Positions 17,067-63,876 of a stretch of 64,000 bases of DNA are shown here, piece by piece. Position 1 is the stretch's first letter. Each line of letters starts with the position of its first letter. The notes beneath the pieces are model-generated. The model was not told where the DNA came from. It ran no database searches and worked only from the letters and a program-made list of their open reading frames with translations. Both the position numbers and the translations under genes were made by a program. The DNA comes from a virus (lineage: Duplodnaviria > Heunggongvirae > Uroviricota > Caudoviricetes): IMG/VR virus record IMGVR_UViG_3300012573_000004. One strand, 5' to 3'.

Positions 17067-17123
17067 GTCTTTTATTCCTTTAGACTCTATATGCTTTGTA
17101 CTATTTTAACATAGAAAACATGT

Positions 17124-17619: not shown

Positions 17620-17631
17620 TATTTACCCCAT

Positions 17632-17805: not shown

Positions 17806-17820
17806 TTTTTCTCCTTTGTA

Positions 17821-26641: not shown

Positions 26642-28036
26642 CTACCAACTCACTAAAGCTGAGTTGGTTTCCTGCTTCTTAGAGGATACAGTCCCCTGCA
26701 TTGCTGCAGGTTTCTGTAGGTCTACAACCCTCTCACTATGCTCATAGAAAACATAGTCCAATTGGTCCAAATAAGAGTTTTGTCCAATCAGCACAGGCGT
26801 TAATTCCCTATGTTCCATAGGTATATTATGTTCTGATAAACCAAAATCTATCATGTTTTTAGCTGCATGAATATCACGATCTTCTGTAGCACCACAGTAT
26901 TTACATACATATTCTCTTTCTTTCAAAGAGTGTTTAGTGTTTTTATCACATGAAGAACACCATTGTGTAGTAGGAGACCACTTATCCACCATAAAAGCTC
27001 TTGGATGAGCTTTCAAAAGAGATTTAACTCTACCTAGAACACTGTGATGGAGTTTTCTTCCAAAGCGCATCTTCCATGCACTCAAACTTTCATCTTGAAA
27101 GAAGACATACTCATTTTTCATCAAAAGAGAAACTATTTGTTTAGCAAGATTATCTTTCTTGTTATTAAGTTTGTCATATTCCCTGTTTAGTTTCTCCTTT
27201 GTAATGAAGTAGTTATGAGAAAGTGGAATATAAGACAAACCTTCTTGATTCTTTCTCTTTTTTGCTTGTCTATATTGTCTATCTAGTTTCCTTTGTAGTC
27301 TTTTTACCCTTTGTGGCACTTCAATAGTAGTACTTATCTTCTCACCAGTTGATAGGGTTATGTGAGTTGCAATTCCCATATCAATCCCAATAGCAGTATT
27401 AGGAATGAAATCATCTACATCTACTTGTGAGGTATAAGCTGTTATTTTAATGAAGAACCCTGATGCTTTTTTAATGAGTTTAGCATTAGCTAACTCAGCA
27501 TCTTGAGGTATTTGATGCAGTCCATAAACTTTAAAACTTCCAGGTATCTTTTGAATACTTGCTTTCTTTTCTAGAAAGTTTATTTTATAGGTAGTTTTGT
27601 ATTGCTTGAGATCAATACTTTGAACCTTGCGTGCAAATTTCAAACTTCCTACTTTATGTCCCTTTTCTTTGAGTGCTTTCAAAGAAGACAAGTTTCTAGA
27701 GATGGAAGAAACAATAGACTGTTTCAACTGAGAACCTAGATAACAAATCTTCCTATCTTCCATTTTTCCTTCCCTGTTCATCACAGGTACTGTTTTTCCA
27801 GGAATATAAGAAGTTGGTTTATCAGTGTTAAGAGCAGCATTGTATATCCATTTTGCTTCAAGAAACACCTTATCTAGCGCTTCTTTTTGCTGGAGGTTGA
27901 GTTTATCCATATCAACTTTTAGCTCATAAACTTTACATGTTTGTTGAGATCTACGCTTGCGAGTTTCTTGTCTTGTTCTCGCTATTTGTGCATTTTTCTC
28001 ATTTGCATAAACTTTCTTATTTACTATAGCTGACAT
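26642..28036 (-). CDS. tnpB: TnpB (IS605 OrfB) RuvC-like nuclease
   Basis: RuvC-I IGIDMGIATHITLSTGEK. Zinc finger CSSCDKNTKH...CKYCG. RuvC-III DRDIHAAKNMI. SD agaggtgaataataccATG. Confidence 0.8.
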   Translation of the reverse strand: MSAIVNKKVYANEKNAQIARTRQETRKRRSQQTCKVYELKVDMDKLNLQQKEALDKVFLEAKWIYNAALNTDKPTSYIPGKTVPVMNREGKMEDRKICYLGSQLKQSIVSSISRNLSSLKALKEKGHKVGSLKFARKVQSIDLKQYKTTYKINFLEKKASIQKIPGSFKVYGLHQIPQDAELANAKLIKKASGFFIKITAYTSQVDVDDFIPNTAIGIDMGIATHITLSTGEKISTTIEVPQRVKRLQRKLDRQYRQAKKRKNQEGLSYIPLSHNYFITKEKLNREYDKLNNKKDNLAKQIVSLLMKNEYVFFQDESLSAWKMRFGRKLHHSVLGRVKSLLKAHPRAFMVDKWSPTTQWCSSCDKNTKHSLKEREYVCKYCGATEDRDIHAAKNMIDFGLSEHNIPMEHRELTPVLIGQNSYLDQLDYVFYEHSERVVDLQKPAAMQGTVSSKKQETNSALVSW

Positions 28037-28114
28037 GGTATTATTCACCTCTTTTCTGATATTTTGCTATGCTCTTACTTAAAGAGTATAGCACATAAGA
28101 AAGTGATAAGTAGA

Positions 28115-34419: not shown

Positions 34420-35922
34420 TTAAAAGAATATCTTTTTCACTTTGTCTAGGAAAGATACATTAACCTTTCCACCTGTATTAACTTTAGGTCCTACATTAGT
34501 AGAAATGTCTTCTTTCTTCACAGGTTCAGGTTTATTTATGTCCCTTGATACTTTTTCCTTATGAAAAGTATCATTGTCTTCTTCATCTTCTGTATCATTT
34601 ACTGATGCTGAGAGATCATCTCGTGAAATTTCTCCTTCAGCTGGTTGTGGGGGTTGTATGGTATAGCCATCATCACTATCCTTGCTGGTAGAGGTTGTGG
34701 GTTGGTCAGAATCTGTGTGGCTATCCTCTGTAGATGAAGGAAATGTAGTCTGGCTGGGAGTGGCACTATCTGCATGAGAAGACACTACAGAAGGGGATTC
34801 TTTCTTTGCATTATCATCATCTCCCTGTGGTGGAACTACTGATGGTGATGAGTCAGGAGAAGGATTATTATCTCCTGAGGAAGGCTTATCTTTGTCACCT
34901 GAGGAGGGCTTATCTTTATCTCCTGGAGAAGGCTTGTTATCTCCTGGTGAAGGTTTATCTTTGTCACCTGAGGAAGGCTTATCTTTGTCTCCTGGAGAAG
35001 GCTTGTTATCTCCTGGGGATGGTTTATTATCATCAGAGGATGGTTTATCTTTGTCATCAGGGGAGGGCTTGTTGTCATTTGTATCTTTGTCACCAATGGT
35101 ATTGACAAATACCTCTTTCCCTACTGTCTTTTCAATCCACTCTTTATACTCAGAAACAGGCATGTACATAGTCTTCTTATTTCCTACTGGATCCACACCT
35201 TTTGGAGTTGCTCCAAAGGAAAGAACACCATAGAGTGTATCATTGATAACAAATGGTCCTCCAGAATCCCCTACTGTAGAAATTCCTTTTTTGAAAATAA
35301 CAGGATTAACGTTCATTCCTGGATTAAACTCATCATCTTTTTCTGTCTTATAAGACATTGTTCCATCCAGAGTGTTAAGTTTTTCCAATTTATCCTTTTT
35401 ACCTGGTCCCCAGCCATATCCTTTTCCTTCAGTGTTTTTATTGATGACACCTTCTTGCAGCTTCATAGGGGTAATATTGCTTGCAGGTTTATCAAGGTGA
35501 AATAACGCCATGTCCCTATCTGAAGAGTAGGTCTTTACATTGTCTACTTTATAAACAGGCTGTGATTTGGCACTAGTTCCAAAAGAAATATCTGAATACC
35601 ACTTATCTATTCCACCTTTAGGAATACAATGCTGTGCTGTTAACACCCACTGTGGTGCAACCAAAGTTCCAGAACAAGTCAGAGTATGAATTTTAGGTTT
35701 TTTATCATCTATATCTTCCTTATTTTTCATAAAAATTCGTGCTACTGCACTAGTGGTATCATTATCTGGTGCATCTGTAGAAGAAACCATTGCTGATGCT
35801 GGTGCTATAGAAGCTGTTAGTGCAATAGCAGCTACAGTAGAAGCTGTGTATATTGTGTGTTGTGAAGGCATAAAGAGTAGTCCTTTTTCTAGATGTTGTG
35901 CATTTCTATGCAAATTTTTCAC
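34420..35922 (-). CDS. Secreted trypsin-like serine protease with a (D/N)KPSPGDKDKPSSGD repeat linker and a C-terminal TGG tag (GPKVNTGGKVNVSFLDKVKKIFF)
   Basis: Signal peptide. His motif TAQHC. Ser motif GDSGGPFV. Tandem-repeat linker. Conserved C-terminal tag. Confidence 0.8.
   Translation of the reverse strand: MKNLHRNAQHLEKGLLFMPSQHTIYTASTVAAIALTASIAPASAMVSSTDAPDNDTTSAVARIFMKNKEDIDDKKPKIHTLTCSGTLVAPQWVLTAQHCIPKGGIDKWYSDISFGTSAKSQPVYKVDNVKTYSSDRDMALFHLDKPASNITPMKLQEGVINKNTEGKGYGWGPGKKDKLEKLNTLDGTMSYKTEKDDEFNPGMNVNPVIFKKGISTVGDSGGPFVINDTLYGVLSFGATPKGVDPVGNKKTMYMPVSEYKEWIEKTVGKEVFVNTIGDKDTNDNKPSPDDKDKPSSDDNKPSPGDNKPSPGDKDKPSSGDKDKPSPGDNKPSPGDKDKPSSGDKDKPSSGDNNPSPDSSPSVVPPQGDDDNAKKESPSVVSSHADSATPSQTTFPSSTEDSHTDSDQPTTSTSKDSDDGYTIQPPQPAEGEISRDDLSASVNDTEDEEDNDTFHKEKVSRDINKPEPVKKEDISTNVGPKVNTGGKVNVSFLDKVKKIFF
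34842..35097. repeat. In-frame tandem repeat (about 21-24 bp units) encoding KPSPGD(N/K)DKPSSGD
   Basis: Repeated DNA. Antisense frames give the spurious ORFs 34806..35105, 34836..35108 and 34892..35233. Confidence 0.7.
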
Positions 35923-39382: not shown

Positions 39383-42073
39383 ATGAAGAAAAACACTATT
39401 TTAGCTTGTACTGCTTTGTCACTTATTCTCCCCTGTGTCCCTGCTCATGCTGCTAATGATATTTACAATATATCACCAGCTTCCACCCCACAGCAGATCA
39501 AAGATTCTACCTCTTCCCAGGTAATGACTATTCATGATAGAGAACGATCTTCAGATCTCACCACCATTTGGATAGCACCAAGGAAAGATTGCAATGATAA
39601 AGCTGATGGTAGCAAAGACAACCCAGTATGTGATGTGTCACAGGCTAGCTCTATTCTTAACAATCTTTACCAACAGGGAAAAGCACGTGGTGATGTAGAC
39701 ATCAGATTCAAAACAGGAAAAGGTGTTGTCTATCAACCTGAAAATGGAAAAAGGTTTGGTGATTTTACCTTCGCTCCTACAGCAGGACATGTAGTGAGAT
39801 TTATTCCTGATTGGTACAACAACATTGATGACTTGAAGAAAATCAATGCTGATAATAGAATCAATGTTAAAGGATATCCAGCTTCACAATCTAAAAATAA
39901 TGACTCTGGGGTAGGTTTATCTATTTCTCCTAAATCTAATAAGGGAGGAACATATCAAATCAGTGGATTCCATTTTGACAACCTGGTAAACCCATTGAAA
40001 GTCATCACTCCTCAAGTAACCAAAGACAAAATATCCAATAGCTCTGATCCAGAAGATATCTATAAAAACATTAGACATTCCCAGAATGCACCTATAGGGA
40101 ACATGCTTATTTCCAATAACGTTTTTGATCATGTAGGTGATGCATACACAGCTGGTGGTGGAAACTACATCTCAGGTGCAATGAGGGTGTGGGGTGCTAC
40201 CAACATGCTTATCAAAGACAACACTTTTATCAATGGAAAAGCAACTTCTAAAAACACTTCTACTTCCCATGTTATCTACAACTATATGACATCAGGAACA
40301 GTCTATGAAGGAAATACCTTCAAAAATAATAACTACTCTTTGATTAGAGCACGCTTGAGCAATGATGATATTATTACAGGAAATAACTTTTCTACATCTA
40401 AGAGTCTTTTTGGAAAAGACAAGGAAGTGATTGGAACATGGTATCAAGGATACCTCTATGGTAAAGGAGGAACAAGAGACAACAAATCTTATGCAGAATG
40501 TAAAGGTGATGGACCTTTTGAGTTCAACAACACCTTTACAGGAAGATACTCCACTGTCTTAAGAAACCTTAAACAGCAACCTTATTGCACAGATAAAAAA
40601 CGCATCACAGCACCCATGTTTCTAGAAGGAATACAAACTGGAGATAAAGAATATTCCCTTCGTTGGGGGGATGCTGATACTAATGGTGATGGAGTGAAAA
40701 ACTACCATGTCTATGTAGGAAAAGCTAATAAGTATGGAACTCCTACTTCTGATGTACCTGTCAAAGTAAAAACCACTCCTTCTTCTGTGCATGAAGCCAC
40801 AATTGATAAATCTATGTTTGACAAAGCTGGTATCAAGCCAGGTGATAACTTCCACTATTATGTGGTAGCAGAATCTACATCTGGATGGTTGTCTTCTAGA
40901 AACCAACTGAAAACATCAGCATTCCTTGATAAAACCTATCAAGGAAGAGACAACTATACTGTAGCTAGAGTGGAATCATGGGATAGAATCACTGATGGTA
41001 AAAAGCCAGAGAAATCCACTTTTAACTATGATCTTGTTTCACACAAGGTATCACCTAGCTATAAGAGTGCAAAAGTAAAACCAGGAGACAAAGCAACACA
41101 GTATGTGTCCCTTTCCAAGGTTCCTGCTTATACTACATTCTCATTGAAGGATTCCACATTTCCTAAAAAGGTATCTATAGATCCACGCACAGGAAAAATC
41201 ACTGCTGACACTGCAAAAGTAAAACCTGGAAAATATACAATAGATGTTGATGTGCAATATGGTGATTGGTCTCATGACACTGCAACATTCAACCTTGAAG
41301 TAGAAGAAGAAACAGTTGACAAGCCTTCTACTGATAAGCCAACCACCAGTACCAGCAAGAAGCCAACCACCAGTACTAGTAAAAAGCCAACCACCAGTAC
41401 TAGTGAAAAACCAACTTCTACTGACAAGCCAACCACCAGTACTAGTGAAAAACCAACCACCAGTACTAGTGAAAAACCAACTTCTACTGACAAGCCAACC
41501 ACCAGTACTAGTAAAAAGCCAACCACCAGTACTAGTAAAAAGCCAACCACCAGTACTAGTAAAAAGCCAACCACCAGTACTAGTGAAAAACCAACTTCTA
41601 CTGACAAGCCAACCACCAGTACTAGTGAAAAACCAACTTCTACTGACAAGCCAACCACCAGCACATCTAGTGACATTTCCAAGCCATCTAGCTCCAATGA
41701 TGTAACAACTAGCAAGAAGCCAACAACTTCTTCCAACAAGAAGACTGCTTCTAGCACTGTAGTTTCTCCTACAGCACAACCTTCTCCAGTAGATAAGGGA
41801 AGCTCTCATCACCCATCACTATGGGAGAAAATAAAGTCTGTCTTTTCTCCACATAAAGAAGATCAATCTTCTTCTAATAACCAAGTAAAAACCCCTTATC
41901 ATGCAGTCAATGCAGAAAATAGTGAAAGCAACGCAAGAGACAGTCATGACTACCACCCTGGTGATGCAAGCAATGATGCAGATACAGGAGAAGGGAAAGT
42001 AGGTCCAGAGGTAAACACTGGTGGAAAGGTGGATAGATCCTTCCTAGATAAGGTTGTATCCATTGTGAAATAG
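39383..42073 (+). CDS. Large secreted right-handed beta-helix (pectin-lyase-fold-like) surface protein with TSTS(K/E)KP tandem repeats and a C-terminal TGG tag (GPEVNTGGKVDRSFLDKVVSIVK)
   Basis: Signal peptide ILACTALSLILPCVPAHA. Parallel beta-helix repeats (NNVFDHVGD...GNTFKNNNYSLIRARLSNDDIITGNNFS). Thr/Ser/Pro repeats. Tag. Confidence 0.7.
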   Translation: MKKNTILACTALSLILPCVPAHAANDIYNISPASTPQQIKDSTSSQVMTIHDRERSSDLTTIWIAPRKDCNDKADGSKDNPVCDVSQASSILNNLYQQGKARGDVDIRFKTGKGVVYQPENGKRFGDFTFAPTAGHVVRFIPDWYNNIDDLKKINADNRINVKGYPASQSKNNDSGVGLSISPKSNKGGTYQISGFHFDNLVNPLKVITPQVTKDKISNSSDPEDIYKNIRHSQNAPIGNMLISNNVFDHVGDAYTAGGGNYISGAMRVWGATNMLIKDNTFINGKATSKNTSTSHVIYNYMTSGTVYEGNTFKNNNYSLIRARLSNDDIITGNNFSTSKSLFGKDKEVIGTWYQGYLYGKGGTRDNKSYAECKGDGPFEFNNTFTGRYSTVLRNLKQQPYCTDKKRITAPMFLEGIQTGDKEYSLRWGDADTNGDGVKNYHVYVGKANKYGTPTSDVPVKVKTTPSSVHEATIDKSMFDKAGIKPGDNFHYYVVAESTSGWLSSRNQLKTSAFLDKTYQGRDNYTVARVESWDRITDGKKPEKSTFNYDLVSHKVSPSYKSAKVKPGDKATQYVSLSKVPAYTTFSLKDSTFPKKVSIDPRTGKITADTAKVKPGKYTIDVDVQYGDWSHDTATFNLEVEEETVDKPSTDKPTTSTSKKPTTSTSKKPTTSTSEKPTSTDKPTTSTSEKPTTSTSEKPTSTDKPTTSTSKKPTTSTSKKPTTSTSKKPTTSTSEKPTSTDKPTTSTSEKPTSTDKPTTSTSSDISKPSSSNDVTTSKKPTTSSNKKTASSTVVSPTAQPSPVDKGSSHHPSLWEKIKSVFSPHKEDQSSSNNQVKTPYHAVNAENSESNARDSHDYHPGDASNDADTGEGKVGPEVNTGGKVDRSFLDKVVSIVK
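41316..41660. repeat. In-frame tandem repeat (27/33-bp units) encoding KPTTSTS(K/E)KPTSTD
   Basis: Repeated DNA. Explains the spurious antisense ORFs 41141..41812, 41272..41757 and 41316..41705. Confidence 0.75.
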
Positions 42074-49423: not shown

Positions 49424-49828
49424 TTAAACAAGATTAGGTTGTGCAGTTTTGTGGAAATCCAGCTCAATAGAGCGCACATCATAAGTAGATGCAGCCTTAG
49501 ACAAGTTGATGATCATGAAGTTATCATCATCACCTGCAAGATTATATACCTCATTCATAGAATCTAGAGCAAAAATATCAGCATCAGTCCAGTTTCGTGC
49601 AGCAGCATTCCTATGATAGTTGTCTTTACCCAAATCCAGCTTGGAGTAATGAATCATGAAGACTTCTTGCAGAATCAGATCCGTTACAGCATGTACTCCT
49701 CGCTTGTTGAGCATCATAGTGATGTCATTGTCATTGAGAACATTTTCAATCAAAGATACAGTGGAATCAAAGGTGTTCTTGGTAGATGCCACCACTCCTG
49801 TGATAACCCCAGCACCCTGGTATTGACA
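49424..49828 (-). pseudogene. 3' portion of a small-protein gene split by the IS605-like insertion. Paralog of 52245..52670. Continues from the 5' fragment at 51902..51925.
   Basis: Translation ...CQYQGAGVITGVVASTKNTFDSTVSLIENVLNDNDI... aligns with the intact paralog from residue 9 onward. No in-frame ATG start: the track ORF 49424..49795 begins at a GTG, and the frame upstream of 49828 hits stop codons. Confidence 0.6.
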
Positions 49829-49879
49829 TTCTCCCCATAGCTAAAGCTAGGAGATTCAGTGTGTTATAGACTATAACTC

Positions 49880-51346
49880 CTAAATGGAGGTGTTATCATC
49901 TATAACCTTGACTGGATTGATAGCATCATTGAAATCAGCCTTGATTGAAGGTTTGAAAAACTCTTCTCTCATACCTTGCGGTATTGTAGGTCTTATAATC
50001 TCTCCACTACCATTCATATGATGTGCATCATATGCGGGCAAGTCAGTGCCCTGTAAAATATACTCATATAGAGCTAGGATGTTGCAAGCAGCATTGGTAT
50101 CAGCATTGCTATCATATCCACAATGCTTACAAAGAAAAATAGATTGACTCTCTCTATTCTTCTTATTTGTATATCCACACTTGCTGCACCTTTGAGAAGT
50201 GTAATAAGCTGGAACATACACTACTTGCTTTCCATTGTTTAAAGCTTTATATTCCAACATGGTACTTATTGTGGAAGGTGAAGCTGAAAGAAAAGATCTA
50301 TTCATTCCTCTCTTTTTCTTTCCACCTTTTTTAGTCATGTTCTTAACCTGGAGATCTTCTAGAACAATCACACCATGTTCTCTAATGATGAAGGTTGTTT
50401 TTTCTTGAAGCCAAGAGTTTTTATATGCAGAAATCTTCTTGGAATAATGAGCACATTTTCTCTTGTTTTCTTGGTAAGTATTTCCCTTCATCACCTTGTA
50501 CATGTTTTCTTTCCCACCAGCTTTTTTAGCTCTAGATCTAGCCTTACCCATTTGCTTTTGATAATACTTCTTCTTAGACTCATACTTATCTAAGAGCTTT
50601 TTATCAAAAGACATAGTTTTTCCATCACTAGTAGCTAGTGGAATGACCCCTCCACGATCAATGCCTACTGCTTTATTAGTTGCAGTAGAGTTCTTCTTAT
50701 TGCAAGCTGGGGTATTAGTAAAAACAACTGTCTTTGAAGACCAATTGACTATGACACTGGTATAGGGGTTAATGTCATCATAGGTTTTTACCCTAATGGT
50801 AATCTTCCAAGAAGATTTGTCCTTGGAGTTTTTCTTTTTATCTTTGGGATTTCTACCACCAATAACAATGACTCCTGTGTTTTTACCAGTTTTATGGTAT
50901 CTAGCATTAGTACCATTGTTATACCAGCATACAAAATATTGATCTTCTTTCTTTTTAGATTTAAATCTAGGCATAGAACCAGGATTAGATACACCTTTTT
51001 CTCTTAATGTTTTTCTTCTTTTTACAGCAGAAAACCATTCAATGTTTTCTTTCTTTTCTGGAGCTTGCAAAATCATTGTTGGAATAGCAGAAAGGAAAGA
51101 ATACTCTATCCTTGCATTTTTGTCAGTGATATTTGCAACATCACTTCCAATGGGGACAAGATTTTTATTCTTGTCATATTTCTTTCTTTTAGATCTATGC
51201 TGATTAAATCTTGTTCTGTATCCATCACATAACCAGTTCATAATCTTATCAGGAGATGTAGTATAAGAGTCAGTACCTTGAATACAACCACGGTAGATAG
51301 GAGCACCTGAGTGTTTAACACTAATGATTTTAGCCTTTTGACTCAT
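49880..51346 (-). CDS. tnpB: TnpB (IS605 OrfB) RuvC-like nuclease
   Basis: RuvC-I AVGIDRGGVIPLATSDGK. RuvC-II VIVLEDLQVKNM. Zinc finger CSKCGYTNKK...CKHCG. RuvC-III SNADTNAACNILA. Confidence 0.8.
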   Translation of the reverse strand: MSQKAKIISVKHSGAPIYRGCIQGTDSYTTSPDKIMNWLCDGYRTRFNQHRSKRKKYDKNKNLVPIGSDVANITDKNARIEYSFLSAIPTMILQAPEKKENIEWFSAVKRRKTLREKGVSNPGSMPRFKSKKKEDQYFVCWYNNGTNARYHKTGKNTGVIVIGGRNPKDKKKNSKDKSSWKITIRVKTYDDINPYTSVIVNWSSKTVVFTNTPACNKKNSTATNKAVGIDRGGVIPLATSDGKTMSFDKKLLDKYESKKKYYQKQMGKARSRAKKAGGKENMYKVMKGNTYQENKRKCAHYSKKISAYKNSWLQEKTTFIIREHGVIVLEDLQVKNMTKKGGKKKRGMNRSFLSASPSTISTMLEYKALNNGKQVVYVPAYYTSQRCSKCGYTNKKNRESQSIFLCKHCGYDSNADTNAACNILALYEYILQGTDLPAYDAHHMNGSGEIIRPTIPQGMREEFFKPSIKADFNDAINPVKVIDDNTSI

Positions 51347-51449
51347 GGTTTTCTCCTTTCTTGGATAAGAATGTTCTTTGTTATATGATGTGTTAGTAGT
51401 ATAACATAAAAAAGAACACTATGCAAATCATTGCTTCAAGGAGTAGCTT

Positions 51450-51845
51450 ATGGATGGAAATATTAAAACAGAAAATCACATTACTTATGACTGCCATTAC
51501 CATGTTGCATGGTGTACCAAGTATAAGCTTGAACTCTTAAAAGATGGGGTTGATGAGCGTTTAAAGGAAATCATTTATGATGTAGCACAAGAGTTTGATG
51601 CTGTTGTTGAAGAGTTAAAAATCACAAAAGATCATGTTCATTTAATTTTGTCATGCTACCCTCATATTACTCACAAAATAATCAGAACAATGAAGGGTAG
51701 ATCTTCTAGTCTTCTACGAGAGGAATACAGTTTCATCAATACTAGAACCCCTTCCCTGTGGACAAGACGTTATTTCATTGCTACTACTGGTGAATCACAG
51801 CTAAGAAATATTAAAAGGTACATAGAAAATCAAAAGAGGAGATGA
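51450..51845 (+). CDS. tnpA: IS200/IS605 Y1 (HuH) transposase TnpA
   Basis: HuH motif HVHLIL. Catalytic Tyr region RRYFIATTGES. Length 131 aa. Confidence 0.8.
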   Translation: MDGNIKTENHITYDCHYHVAWCTKYKLELLKDGVDERLKEIIYDVAQEFDAVVEELKITKDHVHLILSCYPHITHKIIRTMKGRSSSLLREEYSFINTRTPSLWTRRYFIATTGESQLRNIKRYIENQKRR

Positions 51846-51901
51846 CACCACCATTCCTCCCCATGCCTAAAGACAGAAGAATCCTGGTGGTGTGCATAGG
51901 T

Positions 51902-51925
51902 TTTCCACAATAATGAACTTGGACA
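51902..51925 (-). pseudogene. 5' fragment (MSKFIIVE) of the IS-disrupted small-protein gene, with its conserved ~230-bp upstream leader (51926..52140)
   Basis: ATG TCC AAG TTC ATT ATT GTG GAA is identical in sense to the start of the paralog (MSKFVIVE). The reading frame then runs into IS sequence and stops. Confidence 0.55.
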
Positions 51926-52244
51926 TATATCTCATCTCTTTCTGATAGATGGTGTGTTTTCCTCTTGAACAACTTCTATATTAGAAGAAAGAAAGAAAGT
52001 TCCCTGTTTAACTGATACCCCATTGTAGGGGTGGTAAAGAAGAGGGTGATATTGTGTCCCCTTATATCACAGTAGATACGCAACACAAAAATGGATAGAG
52101 CGGTTTGTATATTTTAACCTATTCCCACACAGTACCTCCTCACTCTTTTAGCACGCTAATATAATAAGTGGTGGGGAGTTCATAAAAACAAATAAAGACC
52201 CTTGCAAATCTAGCATCTACAAGGGTTTTTATCTGTTTTCTGTC

Positions 52245-52670
52245 TTATGCATCAACCTTTGCAGGATTGTAGAAATCTAGCTCAATAGAGCGTGCATCAT
52301 GGGTAGATGCAGCCTTGGATAAATCAATAACCATGAAGTCATCATCACCTCCAAGGTCATATATCTCTTGCATGGAATCTAGGGTTAGGATCTCAGCGCT
52401 AGACCAGTTTCGTGCAACAGCATTGGTGTGATAGTCATTTTCACCCATGATATCCAACTTGGAATAATCAATCATGAAAACATCATTCAAAATGAGCCTG
52501 GTAATAACATAAGTGCCACTTTGCTGAAGCAGTGCAGAAATGTCATTGTCATTGAGCACATTTTCAATACGGGAAACAGTAGATTCAAAGGGGTGCTTGG
52601 TAGATACCTCCACTGCCTTGACCATTCCAATTCCATGGTACTGCTGTTCCACAATAACAAACTTAGACAT
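52245..52670 (-). CDS. Small hypothetical protein (142 aa); intact paralog of the IS-disrupted gene
   Basis: MSKFVIVEQQYHGIGMVKAVEVSTKHPFESTVSRIENVLNDNDI... SD ctaggagagaaaacATG. Confidence 0.6.
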   Translation of the reverse strand: MSKFVIVEQQYHGIGMVKAVEVSTKHPFESTVSRIENVLNDNDISALLQQSGTYVITRLILNDVFMIDYSKLDIMGENDYHTNAVARNWSSAEILTLDSMQEIYDLGGDDDFMVIDLSKAASTHDARSIELDFYNPAKVDA

Positions 52671-52886
52671 GTTTTCTCTCCTAGTAGATGGTGTGCTTTC
52701 TTGCTTGAACACCTTTTACTATAGTGGGAAAGGTGTCATCTGTCTACTTGCTACCCCATTTGAGGGGTGAAAAAAGAGGAGGGTGATATTGTGCCACCCC
52801 CCCCTTTTTTTGTCTTGTGGTGAGCACACAACACAAGAATAGACAGAGTGGTCTGTCTATTTTAATATTGATTCATATTTAGTGAA

Positions 52887-53131: not shown

Positions 53132-53542
53132 ATGGCTAAAAAGAAAAAGAACACCTCTTCATCTACATCTTCTAGAACTGATATTGCAGCATCATTTATT
53201 GCTGACAACATCTACCGTTATAACACCATGACTGTTGAAGATAGATCTGTTACCCCTTGGGATCTAAGAGATGCACTGATTTCAAAAAACCCTGGAAACC
53301 TTTATGAAGTAAAAAACACCTCTGATGGTGATGTGGTATCTATCAACAACAATGACTGTGTTATCTATGCAGGTGATTCTGCTTTTAGTGATGCTGGACA
53401 AAGGGGTTTTAAACTAGATAGAATCATCTATGACCGCATGGGTGGATCTAGAGGGAAAGGATCTGGATCAGGGGGAAGTTTTGTCACTGTTGCACTTGTA
53501 CTTCTTCTTGTCATTATCATTGCAGTGGCTATTTTCTTCTAA
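53132..53542 (+). CDS. Tail-anchored small protein (basic N-terminus, C-terminal TM VTVALVLLLVIIIAVAIFF)
   Basis: ORF. Terminator 53565..53602 downstream. Confidence 0.5.
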   Translation: MAKKKKNTSSSTSSRTDIAASFIADNIYRYNTMTVEDRSVTPWDLRDALISKNPGNLYEVKNTSDGDVVSINNNDCVIYAGDSAFSDAGQRGFKLDRIIYDRMGGSRGKGSGSGGSFVTVALVLLLVIIIAVAIFF

Positions 53543-53564
53543 GTTGTACTTGTTCAATACAGTC

Positions 53565-53602
53565 AAGCTGGTTTTGTTTTTCAACAAGACCAGCTTTTTT
53601 GT
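53565..53602 (+). terminator. Rho-independent terminator (aagctggt...accagctt plus T6)
   Basis: Read in the sequence. Confidence 0.65.
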
Positions 53603-53820
53603 ATCTAGCAAATAAGATAAAAACACCTCTGATAACTCCATACTCTTTCCTGAGATAGCTTGAAACAAGCTCTTTGGATTTTCATACACAAAGAGATTTC
53701 CAGCTGCTTAGAAAGCAATATAGGAGGTATTATTATATTGTGTCCCTTTTACCTTTTCATAAAAAAGAAAAACACCCCTTGGAATACATCTAAGAGGTGC
53801 ATTTAAATCATAGGCTGTTT

Positions 53821-54552
53821 CTATGCAGCCACAGAACTGTGATGATCAATGACTACATCAGCAAAATCCTCCAAAGTGGAAACACGAACACCTGGAAGAT
53901 GCTCATTATATGGCTGATTGTAGATAACAGGGAAAGAATGAGATCGTGCCAGAACATCAATGATGTTTTTAGGTGCATCATCAATGATGTAGTCAAAACC
54001 CATTTCTGACTTGTTCTTCTTATCCATGAAGAACAAACGATCATCAGTGATGTTGATACCATGACGGGAAAAGAAGCGCAAAGTCTCCTTCCTCCATGGC
54101 TCACGGCGGGCTGTAACAGCAAGAACCTTGAATCCATGATCTACAAGCTTATTGACAGCCATAGGTGCAGTAGGATCAGCTAGAGGAATATCTCCTGCTT
54201 TATCCATGACTGAAACATGTGCTTTTTCAAAGTCATCAAAGTTTTCAAACCATCCAGAATCAACAAAGTTATAAGACTCTGGACAGTCAATATCACTTTC
54301 TGCAACAAGAGAATAAGGCTTCATAGCTGCATTAAAATCAGCCATAACACCATCAATGTCTAGTGCTACTACAGGAGACTTCTTAGTAATGGTAAAAGTC
54401 TTTTCTACCATAAGATCTTTGACAAGATGTGCTTCTTTGATCTTTCCTGGAGATACCTGATCTACAGGGAGATGAGAATACGTAGTGTATAAATCCAATG
54501 AGGACATAAGTGATAAAACTCCTTGATAATATAAGTGCTTTTTTAGATACAT
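53821..54552 (-). CDS. HAD-superfamily 5'(3')-deoxyribonucleotidase-like (NT5C-like) protein
   Basis: HAD motif I VVALDIDGVMADF. Motif III/IV region ...YIIDDAP. Start uncertain (several in-frame Met codons). Confidence 0.55.
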   Translation of the reverse strand: MYLKKHLYYQGVLSLMSSLDLYTTYSHLPVDQVSPGKIKEAHLVKDLMVEKTFTITKKSPVVALDIDGVMADFNAAMKPYSLVAESDIDCPESYNFVDSGWFENFDDFEKAHVSVMDKAGDIPLADPTAPMAVNKLVDHGFKVLAVTARREPWRKETLRFFSRHGINITDDRLFFMDKKNKSEMGFDYIIDDAPKNIIDVLARSHSFPVIYNQPYNEHLPGVRVSTLEDFADVVIDHHSSVAA

Positions 54553-54597
54553 GTGTCACTATAGCAGTGTATCTTTGCTTGATCAAGGAAAATGCAA

Positions 54598-54651
54598 AGA
54601 AAAATAAAAACACCCCTCTATGCAGAGATAGATCCTTGCATAGAGGGGTGT
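54598..54651 (-). terminator. Terminator (15-bp perfect stem acacccctctatgca/tgcatagaggggtgt with a T-run on the minus strand) downstream of the TnpB-like unit
   Basis: Read in the sequence. Confidence 0.8.
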
Positions 54652-54705
54652 TTCAGCCCAATAAGGAGTAAATGAACAATAGTTCACTGGATACACCACA
54701 GCATA

Positions 54706-54812
54706 AGCTATAAGTAAGCTTCTGCTGCGTGTATGACTATACCATAAGATAAAAGAAGACAAAAAGAAAAAACACACATGTACTTTTTACTCCTTGGTAG
54801 CGATCTAGCCCC
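54706..54812. repeat. ~100-bp direct repeat, copy 1 (downstream of the TnpB-like gene). Copy 2 is at 56558..56655.
   Basis: gctata..agcttctgctgcgtgtatgactatacca.aaga.aaaagaaga...cacacatgtactttttactcctt..tagcgatc.agccc shared between the two copies at about 90% identity. Confidence 0.75.
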
Positions 54813-54826
54813 CACCACAGTACCAA

Positions 54827-56623
54827 CTACATTAACAAAGAATGCACACAATGCATATCTTTTCTAGCATAGTTGGTTTTAGCAGCCTTTTCAGGGTCCT
54901 GGAGAGTATCGTATCTATCTCCATCCACTAAAACTGTCACATCATCATAGTGTGTAGTGGTGCTGTAAGTATTTCCCACCTCCTCCACAAACTTTTGTCG
55001 TGCTTTCTTGAACTGTCTTCCTTTCTTTTTATTATCACATTTTCCTGTAGGTTTTCCTTTCTTCTTTCCAGTTGATTTATAGGATAGAGTATCCTTTGTT
55101 ATAGGTGTTCTTAGATTCTTTTTATTCTTATCTCTTTTATAAGATTTAGATTTTCTTCTAGTAGAAGACATTTTACAAGCAGTAGGTATTGCTCTTTTTC
55201 CTATGTTGTATGAAGCATTGATATCTCTATCTACATCTTCTTTGCACTGTGTGCAATGAGCATTCTTCCATGTATTAAATGTAAGATTACTTCCACAGAA
55301 ATAGCATTGCGTGCTTGTATAAGCAGGATTGACAGTAATAACTCTTCCACCATTGAGTTCTACATATTCAGTAGTCCTTTTAACTAGTTCCCCTCTATTC
55401 CATCTACCACTGCTCATAGTATTTTCAATCCATGAAAGATCTTCAAAAGCTACAACAGCGTTATCCCATATATGTGATATATAAGCTATTTCACCTGCTG
55501 CAATGATTGCAAGTTGCCTTTTCTTGTTGCTGTTTTTCTTTCTTTGAAGAGATATTTCATTTTTGATATCCATATACTTTTTGTCAAAAATAGATGTCTT
55601 GTCTAACTTTTTATGTAGTGAAGATATTTGTCTAGATGTTGCTTTGATACTATTAGATAAAGAATGCACTCTTCTTGACAAAGATGTACTATGCACCACT
55701 CTTCCATTTTTGTCAATGACTGAAACTACTGCATAGTCACTAATATTGACATCTACGCCAATAAAATAGTTGCTGGTTATATCTTTGTAGATGTAAGGGT
55801 ATTCCATAGAAAAATGGAATAATACTTTGTTGTCTTTCACAGTTATATCAGGCAAGCATACTTTTGATGCTTCAAAAAACCTTGATGTGTCAAAATGAAA
55901 GTATAGCAAATACCACTGTCCATCAATAACCATTCTTAGACAAATATGACCATCTTCAAAAGGATTGTTGGTGATATATGCATAGCCTTTATCAACAATG
56001 CTTAAGCTTATCTTGTCCCTTATATCACAAGGGGTTCCTATATGGGCTGTTCTCTTCCATCCTGAACTGATATATTTATCACTTGATCCATTGAAAGCTT
56101 TTATTCTTTCTAACCATGATGTAGCTTCATCTACTACTCTTCTGTGGTACAACCATTGTCTTCTGGAGTTGCCACTGGTTTTTGATACATTCTTTGTGTG
56201 TTCTTTGTAGGATATACCACCATTTGAATAGCTAATATGAGATTCTTTATGTGATGGAATAACACCTTGTGGAAGATTTAACCCTAGAGAAATACCTATT
56301 TTACTTGCATTGTTGAAACCATTGTACCTTTCCATATCATCAAGCAAGTGGATATCATTTCTCAGTGTCCATTCAGCTGCTGCTGTTATTGATTGTATTT
56401 CTTCTTTCAACCTAGCAAGAATGAGCTTTGTATCATCAACATCTTTTCCTGATAAATCATGAATGGAATAAGGTGTTGCAGTAAAGCTTTTATAACACTT
56501 ATTGCTGTTTTTGCTCAATATAATCACCTGCTTTAGATAACAAGCACAAGCTTCAATCGCTATAGCTTCTGCTGCGTGTATGACTATACCACAAGACAAA
56601 AGAAGAAAAAAGGGGAAGCACAC
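54827..56623 (-). CDS. TnpB-like / Cas12-like RuvC nuclease (598 aa with an N-terminal extension)
   Basis: RuvC-I IGVDVNISDYAVVSVIDKNG. RuvC-II AVVAFEDLSWIE. Zinc finger CYFCGSNLTF...CTQC. RuvC-III DVDRDINASYNIG. The ATG at 56623 has the SD caaggagtaaaaagtacATG, and this start lies inside the direct repeat. Confidence 0.7.
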   Translation of the reverse strand: MCFPFFLLLSCGIVIHAAEAIAIEACACYLKQVIILSKNSNKCYKSFTATPYSIHDLSGKDVDDTKLILARLKEEIQSITAAAEWTLRNDIHLLDDMERYNGFNNASKIGISLGLNLPQGVIPSHKESHISYSNGGISYKEHTKNVSKTSGNSRRQWLYHRRVVDEATSWLERIKAFNGSSDKYISSGWKRTAHIGTPCDIRDKISLSIVDKGYAYITNNPFEDGHICLRMVIDGQWYLLYFHFDTSRFFEASKVCLPDITVKDNKVLFHFSMEYPYIYKDITSNYFIGVDVNISDYAVVSVIDKNGRVVHSTSLSRRVHSLSNSIKATSRQISSLHKKLDKTSIFDKKYMDIKNEISLQRKKNSNKKRQLAIIAAGEIAYISHIWDNAVVAFEDLSWIENTMSSGRWNRGELVKRTTEYVELNGGRVITVNPAYTSTQCYFCGSNLTFNTWKNAHCTQCKEDVDRDINASYNIGKRAIPTACKMSSTRRKSKSYKRDKNKKNLRTPITKDTLSYKSTGKKKGKPTGKCDNKKKGRQFKKARQKFVEEVGNTYSTTTHYDDVTVLVDGDRYDTLQDPEKAAKTNYARKDMHCVHSLLM

Positions 56624-56655
56624 ATGTACTTTTTACTCCTTGATAGCGATCAAGC
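56558..56655. repeat. ~100-bp direct repeat, copy 2. It contains the SD, the start codon and the first ~20 codons of the TnpB-like gene.
   Basis: See copy 1. Confidence 0.75.
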
Positions 56656-57043
56656 CCTCTCACCACACAATAAGGAAAACAACAGCAAAGGGCGATCAAG
56701 CTGGTGGAATAAAAAGCAAACATGTGTGCTTTTCCCCTCTATTTATTTATATGAGCACTATATAAGAAAACATCCTTTCCCTCAAGTGCTGTTTTTAAGC
56801 ATACTACATAGGGTAAAAACGTGTCAAAATAAGGTGTATAAAATAGGAGTTTCTGCAGGTGAAAGGTATAAAATATGTTGATTACTTTTACACATCTTTA
56901 CAACTTTGCAGCTTTACAGCTCTACAGTTTCCCCCTTCTCCTTAGTTGATTTCTCTTTTCCCTAGTGACTAGGCAAAGATATTATTAACAAGTATAATGT
57001 AGATCACAATGGAGTTTATCTTTCAAAAGCAAAGGAGTGCTCT

Positions 57044-57505
57044 ATGGAAAACACAAACTATCTTATTACTACCTCTGATGAGAATATGTATTATCTTTTG
57101 ATAGATAAAAAATACACTCCACAAGAAAGCTTAGAGTACTTCCTGCAGTATGATCTCAATGCTTTGCTAGAGTTTATAGCAACAGTAAAGTCATCTTCTA
57201 CTCTGCTCTACTATTGGAGAGCAATAGAATCATTAGATACCCCCCTAGATTACTTCACTCAGTGTCAAGAACTGCTTTTCTCTTTTGTAGGAAATGATAA
57301 TACTCCCCAAGAAATCATCCATGATGTAGCAAGCAATAACACTGTGCTAAAAGATGATAAGTTGGGAGTAGAGCCTTGTATAGCACATATGTTTGCTACG
57401 CATATTAACTCAACTCAAGAACTTATAGAAATATATCATGATAACTTTGATAACCATGAAGATATACAAGATGATTTTAATGAGTTGATGCTTGCTGCAT
57501 CATAG
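57044..57505 (+). CDS. Acidic hypothetical protein
   Basis: ORF. SD aaaggagtgctctATG. Confidence 0.5.
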   Translation: MENTNYLITTSDENMYYLLIDKKYTPQESLEYFLQYDLNALLEFIATVKSSSTLLYYWRAIESLDTPLDYFTQCQELLFSFVGNDNTPQEIIHDVASNNTVLKDDKLGVEPCIAHMFATHINSTQELIEIYHDNFDNHEDIQDDFNELMLAAS

Positions 57506-57670
57506 ATGATATTTGTGTCCCCTTTTGACTTCTTCCAATAGCACTCTTTGAAACAATGCTATATTCTGCTATCATTGTGTATTCTTAAAAAAGATACCCC
57601 CCCCATGCAATCACTTTTTTCTAGACACGTTCCCACTTAAACTTCATAAACCTCAAGGAGATAACAACTT

Positions 57671-57955
57671 ATGACTACCTCAAATATTTCAAGTATAGAA
57701 GCAACTGAGCTTCTATATAGAAAAGTACGCTATACAGGATACCTTCTTCCTGTGGATAACTACATCATTGCTATTGAACAAACATGGAATGATGAAACTA
57801 GCACCAACAACTTTGATGCTCATATCTTCTCCTATGAAGAAGATCCACAGTTTGTGTCTCACATAACCTCTAGTCTTTTAGAAGACAACACTTTATTTGA
57901 GACAGAAAACGCTGCAGGAAAATGGGCTATTGATAAGCTAAACAAGATTGCGTAA
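57671..57955 (+). CDS. Hypothetical protein
   Basis: ORF. SD aaggagataacaacttATG. Terminator follows. Confidence 0.45.
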   Translation: MTTSNISSIEATELLYRKVRYTGYLLPVDNYIIAIEQTWNDETSTNNFDAHIFSYEEDPQFVSHITSSLLEDNTLFETENAAGKWAIDKLNKIA

Positions 57956-57965
57956 ATGTAAGAAA

Positions 57966-58013
57966 AAACACCCCTTTGGAAGATTATAAAATATCAACCA
58001 AGGGGTGTTTTTC
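57966..58013. terminator. Bidirectional terminator (acacccctttgg/ccaaggggtgt, A-run plus T-run)
   Basis: Read in the sequence. Confidence 0.75.
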
Positions 58014-59256: not shown

Positions 59257-60132
59257 CTACATCATCAGCATCTTATGCGCTATCTCCCTCATAGCTTTTT
59301 CCACAAAGAATACCTGTGTAGAGTAAGGATGTGGGATGAAGGAAAGAGAAGAAAAGTAAGTTTTTGCCAATGTATAGCTATCTGCAGAAAATCCCCTCCA
59401 TTGAGGACCAGTAGCACGAGTACTAACAAGGAGATTTTCTGCTCTAGAGATTATGAAACTTTTGTACTTATTATCACTATTGTACTTTTTCTCATTATCA
59501 ATAGTGGTATAAAAATTGGAATAGTTATTACCAAAAAATCCAATGTATACTCCTAAAAGTCCTTTTCCAGGAATCCATACAGGTCCACCAGAATCTCCAA
59601 GTTTCCCATAAGCTCCAGAGTCTCCTATAATGACATTGCCTGCTACTATTTTGATATTTCCACAGTTAATCTTTTTCTGCACTCTGCTATATACACATAC
59701 TTTTTCACTGCTTTTAACATCAGAAATATCTACTTTTCTATCACCAGAATAGATATTTTCTCCCAAAGAAACATAGTTATTAAGTTTTACAACATTAAAA
59801 TCATTTCCCATAGATTGAGATAAAAGAGTTTTGCTACTTCTGTCAGTGCGAGATTCTATAGTTCCAATGATGTGATCATCATTGTCATATACCACTGATT
59901 TCTTCCCCTTAAAAGAACAGTGATCTGCAGTATAAGCAAGCTTTTCTTTGTGATTTATGTATCCAATAGTGCAAGTTTTCTTTTTATCAATAGAGATTTT
60001 ATCACCTTGCACAATGGTGGGAAGATCCTCAATAGGTGTGGTGTAAATAGGTTGTGCAGAAGCGTGAGCAGGAAAAATAATGATAAAGCAGAAAGCATAT
60101 AATAATGCTATCTGCTTTGTTAAAATATGCAT
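59257..60132 (-). CDS. Secreted trypsin-like serine protease
   Basis: Signal peptide IALLYAFCFIIIFPAHASA. His motif TADHC. Ser motif GDSGGPVW. Confidence 0.75.
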   Translation of the reverse strand: MHILTKQIALLYAFCFIIIFPAHASAQPIYTTPIEDLPTIVQGDKISIDKKKTCTIGYINHKEKLAYTADHCSFKGKKSVVYDNDDHIIGTIESRTDRSSKTLLSQSMGNDFNVVKLNNYVSLGENIYSGDRKVDISDVKSSEKVCVYSRVQKKINCGNIKIVAGNVIIGDSGAYGKLGDSGGPVWIPGKGLLGVYIGFFGNNYSNFYTTIDNEKKYNSDNKYKSFIISRAENLLVSTRATGPQWRGFSADSYTLAKTYFSSLSFIPHPYSTQVFFVEKAMREIAHKMLMM

Positions 60133-62916: not shown

Positions 62917-63876
62917 TTAGACATTCAAATGTGGAGTTTTTCCAGAAAGAATAGACATGATGAAAGGTGTCAGAATCACTGCTACTCCAGCAATAGCAGC
63001 AAACCCTAGAAGCCATTCAGATCCACTAGAGCTTCCAGAAAACCCACCTGTTTTAGGAGGAGTAGGTGCAGAAGGTTTATGGGTAGCTGGAGTAGGTGTC
63101 ATCTCAGTATCATTGTCCTGATCACCAATGTCAGGGTTTTTCAACGGGGTTTTCTCTAACACATAAGGAGAGTGTTCAGCATATTGACCAGCAGGACACA
63201 TCTTAGACTCATCTACTGTTCCATCTTCATTAATAGAACCATCACCTTCAGCACAATTCTTGTCATCAATAGAGGTGAAGAAATGTTTACCTCCAATGAT
63301 CAAGGTGTATACACCTACAAACCCTTTTCCTGGAATCCAAGCAGGTCCTCCAGAATCTCCACCAATGCCATTGACATGTTCATCTCCTACTACCAAAGTT
63401 CCATCTACACTTTTAACTTTTCCACAATGAACACTGTTGAACTTCCTACTAAACATACATAGCTTTTCACCAGAAGTGATATCTGCAGTGCTTACCCTGT
63501 TATCTCCAGAATAAGAGTTTTCTCCTGTTTCAACATCATCATAAAGATTGATATAAGCTACATCATTACGAGATTTAGGAATACCCATTTTCCTATCAGA
63601 AAAACGTCCATATGCTTCACCAATCTTTTCCCTGTTACTGTTGTAGATAACACTTTTTTGATGCGCTGGAAGACAATGATCAGCAATATAAGCTTTATGT
63701 GTGTTTTTATCTACATAACCAACAGTACAAGCAATAGCAGTTTCATTGATATATACCTTTTCACCTTGTGAGATAGTTGTCTGGGAAGAATCCTGCTGTG
63801 CATGAGCGATCTGTGGAGATGCCAAAGATGCAAAGAATACTGCACATGCAGTAGTCAAAGATAATACTTTTTTCAT
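62917..63876 (-). CDS. Secreted trypsin-like serine protease ending in an LPXTG-like anchor (PPKTGG, hydrophobic TM, Lys-containing tail)
   Basis: Signal peptide. His motif IADHC. Ser motif GDSGGPAW. C-terminus PTPPKTGGFSGSSSGSEWLLGFAAIAGVAVILTPFIMSILSGKTPHLNV. Confidence 0.8.
   Translation of the reverse strand: MKKVLSLTTACAVFFASLASPQIAHAQQDSSQTTISQGEKVYINETAIACTVGYVDKNTHKAYIADHCLPAHQKSVIYNSNREKIGEAYGRFSDRKMGIPKSRNDVAYINLYDDVETGENSYSGDNRVSTADITSGEKLCMFSRKFNSVHCGKVKSVDGTLVVGDEHVNGIGGDSGGPAWIPGKGFVGVYTLIIGGKHFFTSIDDKNCAEGDGSINEDGTVDESKMCPAGQYAEHSPYVLEKTPLKNPDIGDQDNDTEMTPTPATHKPSAPTPPKTGGFSGSSSGSEWLLGFAAIAGVAVILTPFIMSILSGKTPHLNV

Follow-up and report, generated by a model that had tools for sequence, protein, structure and literature searches.

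The question raised by the locus described here is why a gene for a TnpB-like nuclease should lie between two direct repeats of about 100 bp in a phage genome. The locus belongs to IMG/VR virus record IMGVR_UViG_3300012573_000004, of which a 64-kb stretch (the window) was analysed, and the gene, tnpB, occupies 54827..56518 on the minus strand. Loci used for comparison were numbered L001-L092, and the locus comparison itself rests on 12 related loci. As judged from these alignments, the "terminal repeats" represent one segment of the phage's own intergenic DNA, here designated R, in two diverged copies (R_A upstream and R_B downstream), and contain no element DNA. The whole account developed below, to which we assign a probability of about 0.65, is that tnpB is the remainder of a decayed IS607 element, that R was duplicated by recombination between phages and that the nuclease works by means of a guide derived from R_B.

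The repeats were described in an initial annotation, made from the sequence alone, as about 100 bp long and about 90% identical, and this description was borne out. Direct copies at 54717-54819 and 56564-56667 were 88.6% identical over 105 columns of a BLAST alignment (E 5e-30), and in a repeat search they shared two blocks (51 and 48 nt) on either side of a 1-nt indel. The copies lie about 1.85 kb apart and are the only two in the window; a 27-mer common to both (GGTATAGTCATACACGCAGCAGAAGCT) occurs exactly twice in 64 kb, with 0 occurrences expected. No CRISPR array was found in 53500-58000 or elsewhere in the window. The same annotation took the repeat to copy the Shine-Dalgarno sequence, start codon and first 20 codons of a 598-aa gene at 54827..56623, a reading that did not survive comparison with homologues. 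Thus, 274 homologues of 510-577 aa start at M(xx)LSKNS, which corresponds to TTG 56518 or GTG 56527 of the window, downstream of the repeat. The protein therefore has 563 aa (from TTG) or 566 aa (from the alternative GTG), with its stop codon at 54827-54829, and the length of 598 aa is an artefact of open reading frame (ORF) extension. Because of the 1-nt indel between the copies, the two supposed N-termini are in different frames (MCFPFF.. from GTG, MCVFSF.. from ATG). An artefactual N-terminal extension with the true start downstream, a possibility foreseen at the outset, was evident both from the starts of homologues and from homology to a second copy of the element (L001), which begins at 56542.

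As the initial annotation had proposed, the ends of the mobile unit were determined by alignment to other copies and to empty sites. Window positions 56542..54817 correspond to L001 6019-7744 with 93% nucleotide identity, and the L001 protein (P0001) is 91% identical to window TnpB; the gene context is different and both flanks are unrelated. Since homology is confined to 54817-56542, the repeats are outside the mobile unit, which on the minus strand (54817..56542) consists of a 3' remnant of tnpA, tnpB and the right end (RE), the last ending in GTAGTTGGTACTGT. Alleles of the insertion locus were traced through homologues of the neighbouring 153-aa protein. In three empty lineages (L077/L079, L087 and L092), the NT5C gene and the gene for the 153-aa protein are adjacent, and a single R aligns to both window repeats. 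Filled variants with the window-type element are the window itself (the same as L073-75), L088/L089 and L081-83, and a fourth, L076, holds a different IS607 element; all four carry two copies of R. This segment is 118-128 nt long, extends from the first base after TTGTGT to ..GCTGTGGTGT and has a GTGT site at each boundary. The full duplicated unit exceeds the one first annotated. R_B (54693..54816, minus strand) is a complete copy of 124 nt that runs from the first base after RE to the second GTGT site, and R_A (56543..56664, minus strand) is truncated to about 121 nt, the last 8 or so nt of R, including most of the second GTGT, being gone.

These alignments bear directly on the proposal that the repeats constitute either the intrinsic ends of a TnpB element of a new type or a repeat-spacer-like arrangement in minimal form. 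The repeats do bracket the gene, and R_B begins exactly where the unit ends, but the flanks of the L001 element are entirely different, no flanking direct repeats were found within 1.5 kb of the intact relatives L084 and L091, and the 64 kb hold two copies of R and no array. The proposal, which we consider next to impossible, is refuted because the empty sites carry R alone. Genomic copies without the repeat, named in the initial annotation as evidence that would count against a new element architecture, are thus on hand in L084 and L091. Its view that long flanking direct repeats are atypical of such elements was in turn confirmed by these intact relatives and by a survey of 72 related loci, in which flanking direct repeats were noted in only about 5-6 cases, the repeats being paralogous genes or tRNAs in several of these; the family as a whole is thus not characterised by bracketing repeats. 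Another of the options considered there, duplication by the element, came closer, as comparison with the empty sites does reveal an element-associated duplication.

Assignment of the element to a family was based on its transposase. The 3' remnant of a serine recombinase gene, tnpA, at 56499..56543 (minus strand; 14 codons, read from the sequence as LLSKAGDYIEQKQQ followed by a stop codon) overlaps the start of tnpB; for comparison, the TnpA proteins of L002, L084 and L085 end in ..QKKLLKKAGEIIEQKQ before their stop codons. In L002, L084/L090, L085 and L091 (57-60% protein identity), tnpA encodes a 207-aa protein with Pfam Resolvase, HTH_17 and MerR matches and overlaps tnpB by about 25 nt. 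In L001 and L081-83, 42 tnpA codons remain (tblastn E 1e-16 to 1e-17), and in L081 the gene is internally deleted behind a complete left end (LE). From these remnants and the complete LE of L081, it follows that the left boundary of the window unit is a deletion endpoint. The deletion junction, GAAGCTTGTGCT followed by TGTTATC, is identical in the window and L088, and the deletion in both took away LE, the greater part of tnpA and the final few bases of R in its upstream copy. By these comparisons, the element is a non-autonomous derivative of the IS607 family; the window copy has no intact tnpA, 14 codons of the gene being left. The earlier remark that no transposase gene is adjacent was accurate to the extent that no intact one is. 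The IS200/IS605 frame in which it was made was not retained, as relatives carry a serine recombinase and no Y1_Tnp; a genuine IS605-type element is present separately at 49826-51898.

The junctions of related elements agree with this assignment in form and differ from known members in sequence. In six loci with different flanks, RE terminates 10 nt past the tnpB stop codon in TACTGT. On the left, the sequence next to the element is AGTGT in four independent intact elements (L002, L084, L085 and L091) and GGTGT in L081, and right ends are joined to target positions that follow TTGTGT (window), CATGTGT (L081) and GTGGTGT (L001, tRNA target). From these five left-end junctions and three right-end target positions, the rule was drawn that elements of this clade sit directly 3' of GTGT and end in CTGT. 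Characterised IS607 elements insert after GG and end in GG (PMC6188088), the crossover core of characterised members being GG (PMC6188088, PMC10690162), and in CboIStron the transposase target and the target-adjacent motif (TAM) of TnpB are both TGGG, with a scaffold that ends in TCGG (PMC10690162). Repetition of the core dinucleotide at the right terminus, as expected for IS607, is in principle seen here, with GT in place of GG. No inverted repeat joining both ends was found in L002 or the window. A left-end junction of L076 and L081 after AACAGT was also considered and was rejected, as the four intact elements place it at the GTGT 10 nt upstream.

In L001, the tnpA-less element lies beside an intact tRNA-Gln(TTG) and within a second, tRNA-Gln(CTG)-like sequence (L001 5689-5803 and 7745-7804), with a 19-nt target duplication (AATGGCAGCACGTTGGTTT) of about guide length. 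The right end likewise abuts a tRNA gene in the IMG/VR relatives L033 and L039. Interpretation of the L001 flanking repeat as the tRNA attachment site of an integrative element was rejected; the repeat reflects a paralogous tRNA-Gln beside the element-interrupted tRNA-like target.

Likenesses to H. pylori IS607 and C. botulinum CboIStron thus comprise a small serine-recombinase tnpA with a MerR-type helix-turn-helix that overlaps the start of tnpB, the absence of terminal inverted repeats, intact relatives without target duplication, insertion directly 3' of a short motif, the final bases of which are repeated at the right terminus, a right terminus one base off that motif (GTGT versus CTGT here, TGGG versus TCGG in CboIStron) and a guide expected from DNA just past the right end. 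In contrast with those elements, the core and target are GT and GTGT rather than GG and TGGG, TnpB has 560-570 aa as opposed to about 390-410 and differs by an enlarged N-terminal half and a Lys-rich, disordered tail (about 85 aa), Rfam families, RAGATH-18 included, were not matched, the hosts are huge phages in which tnpA is mostly lost, and the window copy is flanked by a target duplication of about 124 nt. RAGATH-18 was not found at the gathering threshold in the 64 kb or at E<=10 in 54400-56800, and the element was therefore not filed under the ISFba1/ISXfa1-type subgroup; Rfam searches overall gave only tRNAs and chance matches, and no TnpB-associated RNA. The element is of an ordinary kind in an unusual setting and represents a divergent IS607 clade. 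What is new is the GT/GTGT target rule, TnpBs of about 560 aa, a candidate omega-RNA that falls in no described class and the huge-phage habitat with its frequent loss of tnpA.

Identification of the gene product as a TnpB/Cas12-like nuclease with three RuvC motifs and a zinc finger, as originally annotated, was well founded. Residues D256, E359 and D432 and cysteines C405, C408 and C422 are invariant or nearly so in alignments of 28 and 115 sequences, and Pfam Cas12f1-like_TNB matched the ORF 54827..56623 at 3.8e-13. In an AlphaFold2 model based on the 115-sequence alignment, pLDDT was about 90 over residues 5-480, and structures matched by this model, with full-length Cas12f and TnpB among them, were AsCas12f (Foldseek E 3e-14, target-normalised TM 0.61-0.65), ISDra2 TnpB (E 5e-12), ISFba1 TnpB and mimivirus Fanzor2 (E 6.6e-9). 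Similarity in a sequence search of the PDB was limited to the region of RuvC-II, the zinc finger and RuvC-III. The protein had been described as about 200 aa longer than typical TnpB; the extra length is real, but it is family-wide, consisting of a larger core and the disordered tail, and does not reflect an N-terminal fusion. This tail (residues ~480-563; 54827-55080) is rich in Lys and Arg and predicted to be disordered (pLDDT <50), yet is conserved across the family; it is in the codons for this tail that the synonymous sites of the gene are constrained. Four tnpA-less copies each retain 563 codons without stops at dN/dS values of 0.15-0.19, which, together with the intact catalytic residues, suggest that the function of tnpB has been maintained.

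Why R is present twice was apparent from the attachment of the two ends. The right end of the window element abuts the start of R_B (54816), i.e., the first GTGT site, and the intact left end of L081 abuts the end of the upstream copy (GGTGT followed by GATCAACAGT..). The two ends are attached to different target sites about 125 bp apart, and R is therefore duplicated. Transposition chemistry does not account for this arrangement, since IS607 transposition yields no target duplications (PMC6188088) and the intact elements of L084 and L091 have none. We favour instead allele stacking by recombination between co-infecting genomes. Two phage genomes, one with the element at the first GTGT site and the other with it at the second, would have met in one cell, and a crossover within the element, or a comparable event mediated by recombinase or homology, would have stacked one R allele on each side.

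Origin of the two copies in different phage lineages was indicated by their sequences. Window R_B is 94% identical to the single R of L077, and the L077 class also includes R_B of L076 (0.81) and the 72-nt R_B fragment of L081. The L087 class, defined likewise by the single R of that genome, comprises R_A of L076, R_A of L081 and R_B of L088 (0.87-0.90; 88-90% for the two R_A copies). Identity between the two classes is 0.72-0.81, and each class exists as a single-copy allele. Window R_A is a mosaic of both classes, at 0.71-0.74 identity to each single-copy allele, and window flanks compared with L077 are 92.8% identical downstream and 87.6% upstream. Since the copies match two single-copy allele classes, divergence between the repeats is divergence between phage lineages.

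A one-step origin, in which a long target duplication arose from widely staggered breaks or from one-ended homing (cutting by TnpB, copying of the donor and end joining), should be judged against this pattern. The 19-nt duplication of the L001 tRNA target is about the length of a guide and its left junction is about where TnpB would cut, while duplication lengths of 19, ~72 and ~124 nt suit repair better than a fixed stagger. Nevertheless, copies formed in one step would have been identical at birth rather than members of different allele classes, cutting by TnpB at 15-25 nt from the first GTGT would preserve about 20 nt rather than 124, and the left junction of L081 is a precise LE at GTGT, as in ordinary transposition, with no end-joining scar. 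The absence of target duplication from IS607 transposition and from L084 and L091 also applies, and a one-step origin is accordingly judged unlikely. The allele classes are compatible with a Campbell-type event, in which an aberrant circle of element and R, excised through RE and the upstream GTGT or through the repeats, integrated in the R of an empty genome. This is a sub-variant of inter-genome recombination; IS607 elements excise as double-stranded circles, and both junctions are at GTGT sites. Such a circle is hypothetical, a target site would have to stand in for the left end as substrate of the recombinase, and the present data fit unequal crossover inside the element equally well, so that we regard the circle as quite improbable.

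Locus L076 is informative in relation to a further alternative, listed in the initial annotation as insertion into a pre-existing repeat, namely that R was duplicated head-to-tail at an earlier time, for example by unequal crossover at the 7-nt TGTGGTG, and that the element was inserted later at the junction. Two TGTGGTG motifs bound R and could mediate a microhomology duplication. In L076, the copies of R are nearly adjacent, the other IS607 element, which is unrelated to the window type, having simply been inserted after GG 5 nt into the second copy, and an R-R state must therefore have existed once. Between these copies, though, is a 10-nt footprint (GATCAACAGT) that exactly reproduces the initial 10 nt of the window-type left end, and the element consequently preceded the tandem state. 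Furthermore, a microhomology junction would leave one TGTGGTG and two are present, the window-type element is located exactly at the copy boundary on both sides (a chance of about 1 in 100), and no element-free genome with two copies was noted among the three empty lineages. An earlier tandem is thus an improbable source of the repeats.

The IS607 element of L076 (3342-5373; ena:ERZ27283358:k119_34765) encodes a 200-aa resolvase and a 478-aa TnpB-like protein, and its flank matches the upstream R copy perfectly. In the 478-aa protein, the RuvC-I Asp and RuvC-II Glu are kept, the zinc finger and RuvC-III are missing, and half of the TNB domain was matched at 24 bits; judging from these residues, it may be nuclease-dead.

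Recombination between lineages, the origin favoured here for the R duplication, has a second case in the window, 3 kb away. The IS605-type element at 49826-51898, with a Y1 tnpA at ~51450-51845 (plus strand) and a 488-aa tnpB at 49880-51346 (minus strand), is inserted after about codon 9 of a 142/155-aa gene, the resident copy of which is thereby interrupted, and precise empty sites for the element are present in L076 and L077. An intact paralogue, about 75% identical, lies directly upstream of the element (regions considered were 49442-49825, 51899-52067 and 52245-52793). The flank on that side is 80-82% identical to relatives as opposed to 90-92% for the other, and the junction of the duplication is therefore an inter-lineage junction.

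The remaining part of the account concerns the activity of the nuclease. The last 200 nt of the unit (54817..55016, minus strand), which overlap the last ~60 codons of tnpB, are a candidate both for the omega-RNA scaffold and for the recombination region of the right end. Where amino acids are identical, codon identity increased from about 0.5 elsewhere in the gene to 0.73-0.80 in these codons, and constrained synonymous sites of this kind would be expected if the DNA also encoded an omega-RNA scaffold or recombinase sites. The 3' ~200 nt further contain nucleotide-conserved blocks and have a consensus fold, although this fold was rejected as an established structure because covariation was too limited. 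By analogy with characterised IS607 and IS605 TnpBs, on which the guide position was modelled (PMC10690162, PMC8612924), the predicted guide would be encoded by the 20 nt directly 3' of RE (GGTGGGGGCTAGATCGCTAC; 54797..54816, minus strand). The notion in the initial annotation that the repeats might be guide-related was correct in part, R_B beginning exactly where a guide should be encoded. On the other side of the unit, a TAM-like GTGT (56665-56668) is followed by a protospacer-like copy of the guide region (20 nt, 56645-56664), the two together occupying 56645..56668 of the minus strand.

Transcription of tnpB could start at a promoter-like site upstream of R_A (TTGACA-18-TATGCT; 56798..56827, minus strand), and no terminator was seen between this site and tnpB. 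Downstream, a GC-rich hairpin followed by a T-run (54608..54653, minus strand; 22-nt inverted repeat, 91% complementary) has the features of an intrinsic terminator, although it was not flagged by a terminator scanner, its stem being beyond the limits of the scanner. This terminator would stop transcripts that run from tnpB into R_B, and in empty genomes it would end the intergenic transcript. An extended -10 promoter (TGgTATAGT) within R for the NT5C gene was considered and was rejected for want of support from the scanner; NT5C has its own promoter-like site past the terminator, and a better site is located upstream of R_A.

According to the proposed mechanism, the host promoter that precedes R_A would drive transcription of tnpB, the 3'-terminal ~200 nt of the RNA would fold as an omega-RNA scaffold and the first ~20 nt of R_B would serve as the guide. 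The nuclease would then cut matching sites next to GTGT in other genomes, with homing or exclusion of rivals as the outcome, and the element's own upstream copy would escape by virtue of a differing seed. Comparisons of guides with upstream copies of R conformed to this scheme. Thus, the window guide and its own R_A differ at 13 of 20 positions when aligned without gaps, as a result of a 2-nt indel in the seed, whereas the same guide has no mismatch in 20 nt with R_A of L088/L089 and one with R_A of L081-83. Conversely, the L088 guide has 12 mismatches in 20 nt with its own R_A and two with the window-type R_A. The downstream copy of L081 lacks its first 48-52 nt, whereby the predicted guide is changed, and a third variant (GGTGGAAGGGC), for which no matching guide was observed, is present in each of the three empty lineages. 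Taken at face value, this pattern would look like self-avoidance and escape from RNA-guided cutting.

Several points weigh against the account given here. The guide, omega-RNA and TAM assignments are predictions by analogy, GTGT having been taken as TAM from the insertion junctions; covariation in the consensus fold was limited to 3 of 33 pairs among six sequences in three groups; and the promoter assignment is a consensus match only. The variable 5' end of R lies in the G-rich apex of a hairpin and its variation might be unrelated to targeting. Filled and empty alleles were sampled from about seven lineages, a small and non-independent set. No genome with the element at one GTGT site and a single R was found among the four filled variants, and the two parental alleles are therefore hypothetical. 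The reverse direction is also conceivable, as recombination between R_A and R_B could have produced single-copy genomes and, with them, both allele classes. Finally, the right-end junction of L081 is 48-52 nt further into R and requires an extra event, either a deletion at TGT microhomology or re-insertion.

A bolder interpretation of the guide comparisons is that duplication of the target has been selected for as part of an RNA-guided conflict among huge phages that infect the same cell, with the tnpA-less TnpB acting as a programmable nuclease for exclusion and homing between phages. Under this scenario R_B would supply the guide, the element's own R_A would be shielded by the 2-nt seed indel and element-free genomes would survive only with the third variant, while allele stacking at insertions, including that of the IS605-type element, would be the footprint of provoked break repair. 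We advance this as a tentative idea, with the odds clearly against it.

Comparison with known RNA-guided and homing nucleases places the predicted activity in context. Like TnpB of ISDra2 and other IS200/IS605 elements, for which restorative homing is described, the window protein is a RuvC nuclease of the same fold under purifying selection, with an omega-RNA predicted to span the 3' end of tnpB and the right end, a guide predicted from the flank and a predicted TAM that is the transposase target. Unlike in those elements, the transposase is a serine recombinase rather than a Y1 HUH enzyme, no Y1 TnpA is found in relatives and the ends lack subterminal hairpins; in the absence of a transposase, spread would be by homing, recombination or transposase supplied in trans. 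Intronless homing and localized marker exclusion by SegF, SegB and Mob of T4-like phages offer a parallel in that a nuclease gene in an intergenic position of a large phage would cut related co-infecting genomes, its own site being shielded by sequence differences and its flanks being mosaic. In the present case, target recognition would be by a flank-encoded RNA guide as opposed to protein, and self-protection would depend on a seed indel in the duplicated target copy. Fanzor2 and IS607-like elements of giant eukaryotic viruses are also IS607-derived TnpB homologues that multiply in very large viral genomes; here, though, the host is a bacterial virus and the catalytic Glu (in FEDLSW) is not rearranged but located as is canonical for TnpB, about 45 residues ahead of the zinc finger. 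In contrast with CRISPR-Cas12 (type V) systems, there is no adjacent repeat-spacer array.

Four aspects give the locus wider relevance. A divergent IS607 clade has multiplied in huge phages, reaching nine or more copies on a single contig in IMG/VR, mostly without transposase. Precise ends, empty sites and a predicted TAM and guide allow direct tests of the nuclease, a candidate for a compact editor whose TAM would be new. Long "terminal direct repeats" can be stacked target alleles rather than architecture, which calls for caution in automated annotation. The reciprocal pattern of guides and protospacers provides a concrete system for asking whether TnpB is a weapon or a gene drive between phages; to our knowledge, such a role has been proposed for OMEGA systems and has not been shown for phages.

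The host of the window is a huge phage. The phage genome that carries tnpB is about 379 kb in size, an exact match to the protein of a neighbouring gene having placed the window on the 378,967-bp metagenomic contig ena:ERZ27289771:k141_5510, and relatives of the protein were found in IMG/VR viral contigs of up to 437 kb, often in many copies per contig. These IMG/VR loci (L003-L072) form a sister clade of about 40% identity in G+C-rich huge phages, reaching at least nine copies per contig, and only 2 of the 70 have an intact tnpA. Sister-clade copies end in ..TTGATAC followed by three variable bases and have a terminal hairpin in which compensatory changes are visible (CCTAC/GTAGG versus CCTGC/GCAGG). 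A nucleotide search of the region against 50,697 phage records gave no match, and a protein-mode search against phage records gave only matches of about 24% identity, to Salinibacter phages. When IMG/VR was scanned for exact patterns, namely two stretches conserved in R and one block conserved at the right end, each gave 0 matches; the same kind of scan gave 0 matches in genome contigs and, in metagenome contigs, only a contig already included in the comparison.

Folding of the undivided intergenic region was observed in L077, where positions 4430-4830 (minus strand), equivalent to window ~56830-56543 plus 54816-54600, have a predicted free energy of -132.6 kcal/mol (z = -7.6). In this fold, a long hairpin pairs the upstream region with R, the 3' foot of a second hairpin is the second GTGT, and the terminator follows. 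The empty-site region has no conserved reading frame and no match to an Rfam family. From the modelled fold, it is possibly a phage non-coding RNA that has been split by insertions.

The window has a G+C content of 37.6% and six scattered tRNA genes. An rIIA-like protein (5043-7610, plus strand; phrog_612, 9e-24) with a GHKL ATPase domain, a marker of large lytic phages, is encoded near its start. Besides 54827..56518, at least three further TnpB-like genes are present, among them 26642-28048 (minus strand; 468 aa, OrfB_IS605 and TNB domains) and 759-2174 (minus strand; 471 aa, with only a weak PHROG "transposase" match). Such elements are abundant throughout these phage genomes, L088 having four TnpB genes inside 10 kb. 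Two other pairs of direct repeats were noted in the window, one near ~15750-18500 (58 nt, 76% identity) and one at 59544-59599 and 63306-63361 (56 nt, 86% identity); the segments that they bracket, 1.7-3.8 kb in length, are without TnpB. Tandem repeats of ~70 nt (34856-35076) and ~156 nt (41325-41673) are located within large ORFs, which encode a trypsin-like protease and a RibLong-domain protein.

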